Shown here piece after piece: positions 1-37,681 of a DNA stretch of 37,681 bases; position 1 is the stretch's first letter, and every line of letters begins with the position of its first letter. The notes under the pieces are model-generated. The model saw only the letters and a program-made list of their open reading frames with translations, was not told the origin of the DNA and searched no databases. The stretch lies in the sequence record MZ375246.1. The stretch is one strand, 5' to 3'. This DNA comes from Escherichia phage T7. The position numbers and the translations under genes are program-made.

Positions 1-141
1 CTCACAGTGTACGGACCTAAAGTTCCCCCATAGGGGGTACCTAAAGCCCAGCCAATCACCTAAAGTCAACCTTCGGTTGACCTTGAGGGTTCCCTAAGGG
101 TTTGTCTTTGGGTGTTACCTTGAGTGTCTCTCTGTGTCCCT
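1..141. repeat. Left terminal direct repeat (TR); window begins one base inside the genome end
   Basis: 1..141 is identical to 37541..37681; sequence matches the T7 terminal repetition. Confidence 0.9.
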
Positions 142-154
142 CTCTGTTACAGTC

Positions 155-7428: not shown

Positions 7429-8010
7429 TGGGACTGTTAGATGGTGAAGCCTGGGAAAAAGAAAACCCGCCAGTACAAGCAACTGGGTGTATAGCTTGCT
7501 TAGAGAAAGATGACCGTTATCCACACACCTGTAACAAAGGAGCTAACGATATGACCGAACGTGAACAAGAGATGATCATTAAGTTGATAGACAATAATGA
7601 AGGTCGCCCAGATGATTTGAATGGCTGCGGTATTCTCTGCTCCAATGTCCCTTGCCACCTCTGCCCCGCAAATAACGATCAAAAGATAACCTTAGGTGAA
7701 ATCCGAGCGATGGACCCACGTAAACCACATCTGAATAAACCTGAGGTAACTCCTACAGATGACCAGCCTTCCGCTGAGACAATCGAAGGTGTCACTAAGC
7801 CTTCCCACTACATGCTGTTTGACGACATTGAGGCTATCGAAGTGATTGCTCGTTCAATGACCGTTGAGCAGTTCAAGGGATACTGCTTCGGTAACATCTT
7901 AAAGTACAGACTACGTGCTGGTAAGAAGTCAGAGTTAGCGTACTTAGAGAAAGACCTAGCGAAAGCAGACTTCTATAAAGAACTCTTTGAGAAACATAAG
8001 GATAAATGTT

Positions 8011-10423: not shown

Positions 10424-12235
<1,812 letters not shown>

Positions 12236-12303: not shown

Positions 12304-14418
12304 ATGATCGTTTCTGACATCGAAGCTAACGCCCTCTTAGAGAGCGTCACTAAGTTCCACTGCGGGGTTATCTACGACTACTCCACCGCTGAGTACGTAA
12401 GCTACCGTCCGAGTGACTTCGGTGCGTATCTGGATGCGCTGGAAGCCGAGGTTGCACGAGGCGGTCTTATTGTGTTCCACAACGGTCACAAGTATGACGT
12501 TCCTGCATTGACCAAACTGGCAAAGTTGCAATTGAACCGAGAGTTCCACCTTCCTCGTGAGAACTGTATTGACACCCTTGTGTTGTCACGTTTGATTCAT
12601 TCCAACCTCAAGGACACCGATATGGGTCTTCTGCGTTCCGGCAAGTTGCCCGGAAAACGCTTTGGGTCTCACGCTTTGGAGGCGTGGGGTTATCGCTTAG
12701 GCGAGATGAAGGGTGAATACAAAGACGACTTTAAGCGTATGCTTGAAGAGCAGGGTGAAGAATACGTTGACGGAATGGAGTGGTGGAACTTCAACGAAGA
12801 GATGATGGACTATAACGTTCAGGACGTTGTGGTAACTAAAGCTCTCCTTGAGAAGCTACTCTCTGACAAACATTACTTCCCTCCTGAGATTGACTTTACG
12901 GACGTAGGATACACTACGTTCTGGTCAGAATCCCTTGAGGCCGTTGACATTGAACATCGTGCTGCATGGCTGCTCGCTAAACAAGAGCGCAACGGGTTCC
13001 CGTTTGACACAAAAGCAATCGAAGAGTTGTACGTAGAGTTAGCTGCTCGCCGCTCTGAGTTGCTCCGTAAATTGACCGAAACGTTCGGCTCGTGGTATCA
13101 GCCTAAAGGTGGCACTGAGATGTTCTGCCATCCGCGAACAGGTAAGCCACTACCTAAATACCCTCGCATTAAGACACCTAAAGTTGGTGGTATCTTTAAG
13201 AAGCCTAAGAACAAGGCACAGCGAGAAGGCCGTGAGCCTTGCGAACTTGATACCCGCGAGTACGTTGCTGGTGCTCCTTACACCCCAGTTGAACATGTTG
13301 TGTTTAACCCTTCGTCTCGTGACCACATTCAGAAGAAACTCCAAGAGGCTGGGTGGGTCCCGACCAAGTACACCGATAAGGGTGCTCCTGTGGTGGACGA
13401 TGAGGTACTCGAAGGAGTACGTGTAGATGACCCTGAGAAGCAAGCCGCTATCGACCTCATTAAAGAGTACTTGATGATTCAGAAGCGAATCGGACAGTCT
13501 GCTGAGGGAGACAAAGCATGGCTTCGTTATGTTGCTGAGGATGGTAAGATTCATGGTTCTGTTAACCCTAATGGAGCAGTTACGGGTCGTGCGACCCATG
13601 CGTTCCCAAACCTTGCGCAAATTCCGGGTGTACGTTCTCCTTATGGAGAGCAGTGTCGCGCTGCTTTTGGCGCTGAGCACCATTTGGATGGGATAACTGG
13701 TAAGCCTTGGGTTCAGGCTGGCATCGACGCATCCGGTCTTGAGCTACGCTGCTTGGCTCACTTCATGGCTCGCTTTGATAACGGCGAGTACGCTCACGAG
13801 ATTCTTAACGGCGACATCCACACTAAGAACCAGATAGCTGCTGAACTACCTACCCGAGATAACGCTAAGACGTTCATCTATGGGTTCCTCTATGGTGCTG
13901 GTGATGAGAAGATTGGACAGATTGTTGGTGCTGGTAAAGAGCGCGGTAAGGAACTCAAGAAGAAATTCCTTGAGAACACCCCCGCGATTGCAGCACTCCG
14001 CGAGTCTATCCAACAGACACTTGTCGAGTCCTCTCAATGGGTAGCTGGTGAGCAACAAGTCAAGTGGAAACGCCGCTGGATTAAAGGTCTGGATGGTCGT
14101 AAGGTACACGTTCGTAGTCCTCACGCTGCCTTGAATACCCTACTGCAATCTGCTGGTGCTCTCATCTGCAAACTGTGGATTATCAAGACCGAAGAGATGC
14201 TCGTAGAGAAAGGCTTGAAGCATGGCTGGGATGGGGACTTTGCGTACATGGCATGGGTACATGATGAAATCCAAGTAGGCTGCCGTACCGAAGAGATTGC
14301 TCAGGTGGTCATTGAGACCGCACAAGAAGCGATGCGCTGGGTTGGAGACCACTGGAACTTCCGGTGTCTTCTGGATACCGAAGGTAAGATGGGTCCTAAT
14401 TGGGCGATTTGCCACTGA
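12304..14418 (+). CDS. 5: DNA polymerase (gene 5)
   Basis: 704-aa [30 protein letters not shown]... Confidence 0.99.
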
Positions 14419-28545: not shown

Positions 28546-31500
28546 ATGGATAAGTACGATAAGAACGTACCAAGTGATTATGATGGTCTGTTCCAAAAGG
28601 CTGCTGATGCCAACGGGGTCTCTTATGACCTTTTACGTAAAGTCGCTTGGACAGAATCACGATTTGTGCCTACAGCAAAATCTAAGACTGGACCATTAGG
28701 CATGATGCAATTTACCAAGGCAACCGCTAAGGCCCTCGGTCTGCGAGTTACCGATGGTCCAGACGACGACCGACTGAACCCTGAGTTAGCTATTAATGCT
28801 GCCGCTAAGCAACTTGCAGGTCTGGTAGGGAAGTTTGATGGCGATGAACTCAAAGCTGCCCTTGCGTACAACCAAGGCGAGGGACGCTTGGGTAATCCAC
28901 AACTTGAGGCGTACTCTAAGGGAGACTTCGCATCAATCTCTGAGGAGGGACGTAACTACATGCGTAACCTTCTGGATGTTGCTAAGTCACCTATGGCTGG
29001 ACAGTTGGAAACTTTTGGTGGCATAACCCCAAAGGGTAAAGGCATTCCGGCTGAGGTAGGATTGGCTGGAATTGGTCACAAGCAGAAAGTAACACAGGAA
29101 CTTCCTGAGTCCACAAGTTTTGACGTTAAGGGTATCGAACAGGAGGCTACGGCGAAACCATTCGCCAAGGACTTTTGGGAGACCCACGGAGAAACACTTG
29201 ACGAGTACAACAGTCGTTCAACCTTCTTCGGATTCAAAAATGCTGCCGAAGCTGAACTCTCCAACTCAGTCGCTGGGATGGCTTTCCGTGCTGGTCGTCT
29301 CGATAATGGTTTTGATGTGTTTAAAGACACCATTACGCCGACTCGCTGGAACTCTCACATCTGGACTCCAGAGGAGTTAGAGAAGATTCGAACAGAGGTT
29401 AAGAACCCTGCGTACATCAACGTTGTAACTGGTGGTTCCCCTGAGAACCTCGATGACCTCATTAAATTGGCTAACGAGAACTTTGAGAATGACTCCCGCG
29501 CTGCCGAGGCTGGCCTAGGTGCCAAACTGAGTGCTGGTATTATTGGTGCTGGTGTGGACCCGCTTAGCTATGTTCCTATGGTCGGTGTCACTGGTAAGGG
29601 CTTTAAGTTAATCAATAAGGCTCTTGTAGTTGGTGCCGAAAGTGCTGCTCTGAACGTTGCATCCGAAGGTCTCCGTACCTCCGTAGCTGGTGGTGACGCA
29701 GACTATGCGGGTGCTGCCTTAGGTGGCTTTGTGTTTGGCGCAGGCATGTCTGCAATCAGTGACGCTGTAGCTGCTGGACTGAAACGCAGTAAACCAGAAG
29801 CTGAGTTCGACAATGAGTTCATCGGTCCTATGATGCGATTGGAAGCCCGTGAGACAGCACGAAACGCCAACTCTGCGGACCTCTCTCGGATGAACACTGA
29901 GAACATGAAGTTTGAAGGTGAACATAATGGTGTCCCTTATGAGGACTTACCAACAGAGAGAGGTGCCGTGGTGTTACATGATGGCTCCGTTCTAAGTGCA
30001 AGCAACCCAATCAACCCTAAGACTCTAAAAGAGTTCTCCGAGGTTGACCCTGAGAAGGCTGCGCGAGGAATCAAACTGGCTGGGTTCACCGAGATTGGCT
30101 TGAAGACCTTGGGGTCTGACGATGCTGACATCCGTAGAGTGGCTATCGACCTCGTTCGCTCTCCTACTGGTATGCAGTCTGGTGCCTCAGGTAAGTTCGG
30201 TGCAACAGCTTCTGACATCCATGAGAGACTTCATGGTACTGACCAGCGTACTTATAATGACTTGTACAAAGCAATGTCTGACGCTATGAAAGACCCTGAG
30301 TTCTCTACTGGCGGCGCTAAGATGTCCCGTGAAGAAACTCGATACACTATCTACCGTAGAGCGGCACTAGCTATTGAGCGTCCAGAACTACAGAAGGCAC
30401 TCACTCCGTCTGAGAGAATCGTTATGGACATCATTAAGCGTCACTTTGACACCAAGCGTGAACTTATGGAAAACCCAGCAATATTCGGTAACACAAAGGC
30501 TGTGAGTATCTTCCCTGAGAGTCGCCACAAAGGTACTTACGTTCCTCACGTATATGACCGTCATGCCAAGGCGCTGATGATTCAACGCTACGGTGCCGAA
30601 GGTTTGCAGGAAGGGATTGCCCGCTCATGGATGAACAGCTACGTCTCCAGACCTGAGGTCAAGGCCAGAGTCGATGAGATGCTTAAGGAATTACACGGGG
30701 TGAAGGAAGTAACACCAGAGATGGTAGAGAAGTACGCTATGGATAAGGCTTATGGTATCTCCCGCTCAGACCAGTTCACCAACAGTTCCATAATAGAAGA
30801 GAACATTGAGGGCTTAGTAGGTATCGAGAATAACTCATTCCTTGAGGCACGTAACTTGTTTGATTCGGACCTATCCATCACTATGCCAGACGGACAGCAA
30901 TTCTCAGTGAATGACCTAAGGGACTTCGATATGTTCCGCATCATGCCAGCGTATGACCGCTGTGTCAATGGTGACATCGCCATCATGGGGTCTACTGGTA
31001 AAACCACTAAGGAACTTAAGGATGAGATTTTGGCTCTCAAAGCGAAAGCTGAGGGAGACGGTAAGAAGACTGGCGAGGTACATGCTTTAATGGATACCGT
31101 TAAGATTCTTACTGGTCGTGCTAGACGCAATCAGGACACTGTGTGGGAAACCTCACTGCGTGCCATCAATGACCTAGGGTTCTTCGCTAAGAACGCCTAC
31201 ATGGGTGCTCAGAACATTACGGAGATTGCTGGGATGATTGTCACTGGTAACGTTCGTGCTCTAGGGCATGGTATCCCAATTCTGCGTGATACACTCTACA
31301 AGTCTAAACCAGTTTCAGCTAAGGAACTCAAGGAACTCCATGCGTCTCTGTTCGGGAAGGAGGTGGACCAGTTGATTCGGCCTAAACGTGCTGACATTGT
31401 GCAGCGCCTAAGGGAAGCAACTGATACCGGACCTGCCGTGGCGAACATCGTAGGGACCTTGAAGTATTCAACACAGGAACTGGCTGCTCGCTCTCCGTGG

Positions 31501-37539: not shown

Positions 37540-37681
37540 TCTCACAGTGTACGGACCTAAAGTTCCCCCATAGGGGGTACCTAAAGCCCAGCCAATCACC
37601 TAAAGTCAACCTTCGGTTGACCTTGAGGGTTCCCTAAGGGTTTGTCTTTGGGTGTTACCTTGAGTGTCTCTCTGTGTCCCT
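37540..37681. repeat. Right terminal direct repeat (TR)
   Basis: 37541..37681 is identical to 1..141. Confidence 0.9.

Follow-up and report, generated by a model that had tools for sequence, protein, structure and literature searches.

The window, by which we mean the whole 37,681-nt stretch of DNA analysed here (record MZ375246.1, Escherichia phage T7), carries the same sequence in the same orientation at both of its ends, as expected of a T7-type (Teseptimavirus) direct terminal repeat (TR). Positions 1-141 and 37541-37681 are 100% identical and form the sole long direct repeat in the window; counting the T at 37540, which is absent from the left end, the TR is 142 bp long. It is homologous to the T7 TR, conserved outer segments included, and is shorter than the canonical 160 bp. 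The class II T7 RNA polymerase pause/termination signal follows directly after the TR and departs from the wild-type ATCTGTT. The features discussed below are the following.

1..141, no strand assigned: left TR, without the first T of the 142-bp repeat; aligns with positions 2-160 of the T7 reference
65..81, no strand assigned: TR hairpin GTCAACC-TTCG-GGTTGAC, intact in the window; later clones of the series have lost 11 bp of it and the T7_1t clones 8 bp
98..102, no strand assigned: deletion junction of the left copy, the retained GGGTT; reference 99-116 missing
142..148 (reference 161-167), plus strand: class II T7 RNA polymerase pause/termination signal, CTCTGTT for ATCTGTT (A161C)
37540..37681, no strand assigned: right TR, complete at 142 bp, from the repeat match and the reference alignment
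37638..37642, no strand assigned: deletion junction of the right copy, the retained GGGTT; reference 39876-39893 missing

When aligned by MAFFT with the T7 reference (V01146, 39,937 bp, TR of 160 bp), each copy of the TR shows one 18-nt gap, at reference 99-116 on the left and 39876-39893 on the right, and outside this gap both copies equal the V01146 TR with no other change. Around the gap the reference reads CCCTAA-GGGTT-GGGGATGACCCTT-GGGTT-TGTC and the window CCCTAA-GGGTT-TGTC, such that the endpoints lie in two 5-bp GGGTT direct repeats (reference 99-103 and 117-121), one of which is kept. The right TR begins TCTCACAG after ...GAGTGACTA and ends ...GTGTCCCT, the same as in the reference. 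An earlier note, made from the letters of the window and general knowledge of the reference, had described a TR 18 bp short of canonical in both copies, with a loss between GGGTT direct repeats at about 95-110; the alignment bears out the length, the reference sequence given there and the position. With respect to the canonical T7 TR (V01146 / NC_001604), the window's repeat thus has the same position and the same ends (TCTCACAGTG... and ...CTGTGTCCCT), and differs in being without a central hairpin unit and in the base after the TR, a C for an A, which breaks ATCTGTT.

The 18-bp loss in the window is real. The identity of the two copies calls for more care. That both are identical and 142 bp long, counting the missing first base, is true of the record, and the suggestion that TR copies are homogenised, so that a change in one spreads to the other, fits established T7 biology, but short-read assembly alone would also yield identical copies. 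The source genomes are SOAPdenovo de novo assemblies of short reads, and repeats of the TR type are collapsed or lost in short-read assemblies (PMC10438801). Because such an assembly cannot separate the copies, their identity in the record is not independent evidence.

What the earlier note missed is the status of the window, which is a laboratory-evolved clone and not a natural variant. Of the phage genomes in the collection, the one closest to the window is the 37,682-bp record MZ375254.1 ('Mutant Escherichia phage T7 clone T7_110S'), and the window is this record minus its first base, with 8 mismatches over the whole length (window 216, 4499, 8520, 17558, 21046, 30764, 30961 and 30970; rounded identity over the first 25 kb, 100.0%). 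At five of the eight the window has the wild-type base, and at three it has a change specific to it with respect to that record. The gene 16 changes at 30764 and 30961 are absent from MZ375254.1 and common to later clones of the same series, and three gene 16 alleles of the window are found in later clones, which implies that the window is a sibling clone or another version of T7_110S. It is in any case a genome-reduced laboratory T7 and not wild T7. The series derives from CiPGr, an iterative CRISPR/Cas9 reduction of the T7 genome (Yuan et al., NAR 2022; PMC9825161), from which large-plaque (L) and small-plaque (S) clones were deposited every 10 transfers up to transfer 300 (MZ375233-292). 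The host was MG1655 with Cas9, lambda Red and a library of spacers and repair templates; phage and cells were combined at ~10^9 each, or ~1 phage per cell, and populations below 10^5 PFU/ml were re-expanded (PMC9825161), so bottlenecks may have occurred. The other differences between the window and T7 in the MAFFT alignment, namely removal of gene 1.4, deletions in 0.4-0.6, 3.8, 4.2-4.7 and 19.5, and twelve point changes, fit this origin. In the main text of the CiPGr paper (PMC9825161) 'terminal repeat' occurs once, as background, and the TR deletion is not discussed; the same main text contains neither 'intergenic' nor 'non-coding' nor 'microhomology', and does not discuss non-coding changes.

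The deposited clones give the deletion a time course, for which TR status was read from BLAST coordinate spans for many clones and from direct alignment for others. All 12 clones available from transfers 10-70 have the full-length TR. Six of the eight from transfers 80-110 carry the deletion (80L, 80S, 90L, 90S, 100S and 110S), while 100L and 110L have the full-length TR, and from transfers 120-300 it is found in 37 of 38 clones, 270L being the exception. Both derivatives of T7_300L (MZ375293, MZ375294) and T7_5t1-3 have it as well. By BLAST, every record with the deletion has two matching places, that is, both copies of the TR.

Beyond this series the deletion is missing from the phage records and metagenomes searched. 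Among 50,697 phage genomes no record outside the CiPGr series carries it, and matches to the junction sequence at ≥95% identity came from CiPGr clones only. The IMG/VR and JGI metagenomes held 0 exact matches to the junction, while T7-like TRs, which served as a positive control, were found there. Wild-type T7 and T7 evolved in other laboratories have a TR of 160 bp; a reference TR of 142 bp would have undone the earlier claim, and the reference and all T7 records outside this one series have the full 160-bp TR. A natural variant or a difference in the ancestral stock was also considered and was ruled out by the full 160 bp in the clones of transfers 10-70. We conclude from these comparisons that the deletion is a new mutation of the CiPGr experiment rather than an ancestral or natural polymorphism; it arose during passaging, at about transfers 70-80, and had come near fixation by transfer 120.

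The sequence at the junction points to a mechanism. The centre of the TR is made up of degenerate units, all with an initial GGGT (GGGTTCCCTAA, GGGTTGGGGATGACCCTT, GGGTTTGTCTTT, GGGTGTTACC...), and the window is without exactly the second of them, which is 18 bp long. We consider it likely that this was a hairpin-assisted slipped-strand deletion in a CiPGr clone, copied to both ends at packaging and tolerated. The second unit would have been lost when its own GGGTT mispaired with the GGGTT of the next unit, and a hairpin of the form CCC-AAGGGT...ACCCTT-GGG would set both repeats at the base of its stem, aiding the slip; a hairpin with direct repeats at its base is a classic substrate for replication slippage (PMC4134008). 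The endpoints lie in a direct repeat of which one copy is kept, and the microhomology exceeds that of random endpoints: of 3523 possible TR deletions of 5-40 bp, 16 (0.45%) have at least 5 bp of microhomology, the 18-bp deletion among them. Given that so few possible deletions have such microhomology, the junction is more than chance. An 11-bp deletion seen in later clones belongs to the same set of 16.

Predictions of secondary structure bear on the hairpin in both directions. The predicted hairpin of the lost unit is CCC.AAGGGT / ACCCTTGGG, and the single-stranded DNA of reference 60-125 is predicted to fold at -13.5 kcal/mol (z -3.1), compared with -7.8 for the window; in RNA, an 11-bp hairpin predicted for the reference is lost in the window. 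Against a role for the hairpin, the stem is short, and the fold of the whole TR is not unusual when compared with shuffles (z about -1). A similar system is the hairpin-assisted slippage modelled by Canceill, Viguera and Ehrlich (reviewed in PMC4134008), in which an inverted repeat likewise lies between direct repeats and is lost along with one copy of them. Compared with the experimental substrates, the TR has much shorter repeats (5 bp) and a much shorter stem (6-9 bp).

Mutational bias alone does not explain which deletions occur in the TR. The longest microhomology is in 8-bp ACCTAAAG pairs at reference 16-58 (window 15-57), which would give deletions of 24 and 19 bp, and neither was seen in the clones aligned. 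This absence points to a functional constraint on the left third of the TR.

The presence of the deletion at both ends can be explained by the way in which the ends are made. The T7 concatemer junction contains a single TR, and the second copy is made at packaging (PMC10438801), so a change in the junction copy would appear at both ends of the progeny DNA. Tolerance of the loss would follow from two properties: the deletion spares the outer TR segments, conserved among the aligned natural relatives, and concatemer formation would require only homology between the two ends. The 142-bp allele is viable and came near fixation, which argues that any effect on concatemers or packaging was not harmful under those conditions.

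How the deletion came to spread is a separate question. Direct benefit, biased repair of a heteroduplex loop and drift through bottlenecks are all possible causes judging from the clone sequences. We give drift or hitch-hiking an even chance, and regard spread through direct benefit as conceivable and the less probable of the two. At transfer 80 the deletion was already present on two haplotypes that differ 45 bp away, A161C in 80L and T162C with T167A in 80S, and it occurs with either A405 or G405 in phiOL and with gene 19.5 either present or deleted. Its occurrence on several haplotypes makes simple hitch-hiking with a single linked change less likely. The deletion may have moved onto different flanking haplotypes when TRs of different molecules annealed at junctions, at a multiplicity of ~1. 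Hitch-hiking with the right-end deletion of gene 19.5 was ruled out, as many clones with the TR deletion keep 19.5.

A more specific version of direct benefit, which we regard as somewhat unlikely, holds that the deletion was adaptive as one part of a coordinated remodelling of the concatemer junction (CJ). It would have taken away a hairpin and T-run at which T7 RNA polymerase (or the replisome) slows or stops on its way across the junction, in concert with a stronger phiOL and a lost class II CJ pause signal. A terminator-like hairpin with a T-run is present at 94-129 of the reference TR and absent from the window, but the number of such matches is no higher than in shuffles (1 found, 0.7 expected). 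The neighbouring elements did change. ATCTGTT is invariant in the natural relatives aligned; in the series the wild-type motif is confined to 10L, 10S and 20L and is gone by about transfers 20-30, with T162C present by 20S and A161C by 40S, followed by double and T167A forms, for a total of at least four alleles (T162C, A161C, T162C+A161C and T162C+T167A). Any base change in the class II motif abolishes termination (10.1101/2021.01.11.426313), and polymerase paused at this signal helps to start maturation (PMC3276506).

The promoter downstream changed as well. In phiOL (window ~369-391) the +1 base, at window 386 (reference 405), is G for A, giving TATAGGGAGA, and in later clones A394G is added to A405G. 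Both changes are towards the consensus T7 promoter, which we take to be TAATACGACTCACTATAGGGAGA and to which phiOL with A405G and A394G would be a complete match; we read this as a probable stepwise evolution towards a stronger promoter. The adaptive explanation is further favoured by independent hits in other TR hairpins (G36T with an 11-bp deletion in later clones; an 8-bp deletion in the T7_1t clones) and by the near fixation of the 18-bp deletion on several haplotypes. Against it, the genome-reduced T7 clones generally had lower fitness than wild type, and the 't' clones were isolated after the two phage populations had been mixed, which makes the independence of their changes uncertain. 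Taken together, the changes in the TR, the pause signal and phiOL suggest selection on traffic across the concatemer junction. That the whole junction module (TR hairpins, ATCTGTT and phiOL) was under strong directional selection during high-multiplicity passage on Cas9/lambda-Red cells, with the 18-bp deletion as one obstacle-removing step, is a speculation we hold to be unlikely; if it were true, the CJ pause would be dispensable or even costly under CiPGr conditions.

Alternatively, the deletion could have spread by biased transmission, with no contribution from fitness. In mixed infections the junction TR would be a heteroduplex of wild-type and deletion strands, whose 18-nt hairpin loop would be removed preferentially, thereby converting wild type to deletion. 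Infection at ~1 phage per cell is compatible with this idea, as are the looped-out strand, which is predicted to be able to fold on itself, and the presence of the allele on several haplotypes that differ just 45 bp away, which reassortment of TRs at junctions would produce. Yet wild-type TRs were still present in the large-plaque clones of transfers 100 and 110, and a full-length TR variant is found as late as 270L. We therefore think biased transmission improbable.

The passage on Cas9 cells raises a different possibility for the origin of the deletion, escape from a cut in the TR, guided by a library spacer or made off target, with joining at the GGGTT microhomology. The clone had gone through 110 transfers on cells with Cas9 and lambda Red, and 13 NGG protospacers would cut within reference 90-125. 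The CiPGr spacers, however, were designed against genes, and no gene is annotated before record position 907; the nearest other T7 protospacer has at least 6 mismatches in 20 positions, some of them in the seed; and the designed deletions look different, that of gene 1.4, for instance, running exactly from ATG to stop without microhomology. An off-target cut was rejected because no other T7 protospacer is within 5 mismatches of any TR site at which Cas9 would cut reference 90-125. CRISPR escape is accordingly a highly improbable origin. Designed CiPGr deletions such as that of gene 1.4 share experiment and genome with the TR deletion, which differs in being non-coding, outside the design targets and located between repeats.

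An artefact of assembly or finishing, with a true TR of 160 bp, is more improbable still: although the genomes are short-read de novo assemblies, of a kind that handles terminal repeats badly, and homopolymer noise is seen in CCCCC/GGGGG across the series, the identical junction is found in ~48 separately assembled clones and is absent from 12 earlier ones that went through the same pipeline, the time course is orderly, the junction bears a slippage signature, and typical assembler word sizes far exceed a 5-bp repeat.

Slippage between repeats, which we favour for the laboratory deletion, also seems to be the process behind natural differences in TR length among T7-like phages. The relatives examined, namely the Yersinia phages vB_YpYeO9 and YpsP-G, Escherichia phage C5 and a 37,555-bp IMG/VR contig, which we take to be phiA1122, all keep the 18 bp. 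The repeat of vB_YpYeO9 is annotated as 148 bp and the TR of phage 13a as 170 bp. Natural TRs of 148 bp are without 12 bp that adjoin the unit lost from the window, which corresponds to a deletion between 6-bp TTGGGT repeats (reference 115-126), and the TR of phage 13a has extra units in the central stretch. The natural length variants and the window thus differ from T7 in the same central stretch and at the same kind of GGGT/TTGGGT repeats. In contrast to the 148-bp TRs, however, the window has lost an 18-bp unit that natural phages retain, and its 142-bp TR is shorter than any natural TR aligned. The conservation of these 18 bp in all natural relatives examined argues for some function in the wild.

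These 18 bp in the middle of the TR are dispensable for viability, though kept by every natural relative examined. TRs of 142 bp, and of 131 bp in some later clones, still support growth, which narrows where essential end signals can lie. Taken alone, it is a small deletion, probably by slippage, in an element already known, and of modest importance. As part of the junction module the deletion is potentially more notable, and the neighbouring changes in the pause signal and phiOL may matter more. Together with these changes, the junction region forms a hotspot of fast non-coding evolution, and those who use genome-reduced T7 as a chassis should be aware that its ends and packaging region are not wild type.

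Several other changes were noted in the TRs of the series. T7_270L, alone among the late clones in having a TR of full length, carries AA in place of T116 (~113-120), which makes the start of the second unit the same as that of the first (CCCTAAGGGTT twice) and looks like a templated copy from the neighbouring repeat. T7_170L, 220S and 250S share G36T in CCCCCATAGGGGG and an 11-bp deletion (reference 70-80) between ACCTT repeats in the GTCAACCTTCGGTTGAC hairpin. In T7_1t1-3, which we take to be clones from the second (cassette-100) library, the centre of the GTCAACCTTCGGTTGAC hairpin is lost by an 8-bp deletion (positions 71-78) with no microhomology.

The DNA between the TR and phiOL is also variable. 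T7_220S and 250S have large deletions and small duplications in CCTAAAG-type repeats at reference ~180-330, and T7_1t2 shows the same instability of the repeat array at ~185-200 and upstream of phiOL. The array of CCTAAAG-type repeats is another unstable non-coding stretch.

Elsewhere in the window, deletions differ in the kind of junction they leave. The gene 1.4 deletion takes exactly the stretch from ATG to stop and has no microhomology (window 7025/7026; reference 7608-7763 missing), which is the signature of a designed CiPGr repair template, and the gene 3.8 deletion (window 10515/10516, reference 11254-11545) likewise has no microhomology. A 1019-bp deletion at window 12234/12235 (reference 13265-14283) lies between 5-bp ACAGG repeats; it begins with the final base of gene 4A/4B and takes out 4.3, 4.5 and 4.7 along with the end of 4.2. 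Parallel deletions of 769-1,019 bp over 4.5-4.7 have been reported in heat-adapted T7 populations (PMC8923235). At window 37370/37371 a 189-bp deletion (reference 39420-39608) between 9-bp ATAGAGTCA repeats takes most of gene 19.5 and downstream DNA, ~170 bp to the left of the right TR; since sister clones with the TR deletion keep the 19.5 region, the two deletions are not linked. Finally, a 563-bp deletion at window 1321/1322 (reference 1341-1903) takes the end of 0.4, all of 0.5 and 0.6A and most of a possible 0.6B, with a microhomology of only 1 bp and endpoints off the gene boundaries.
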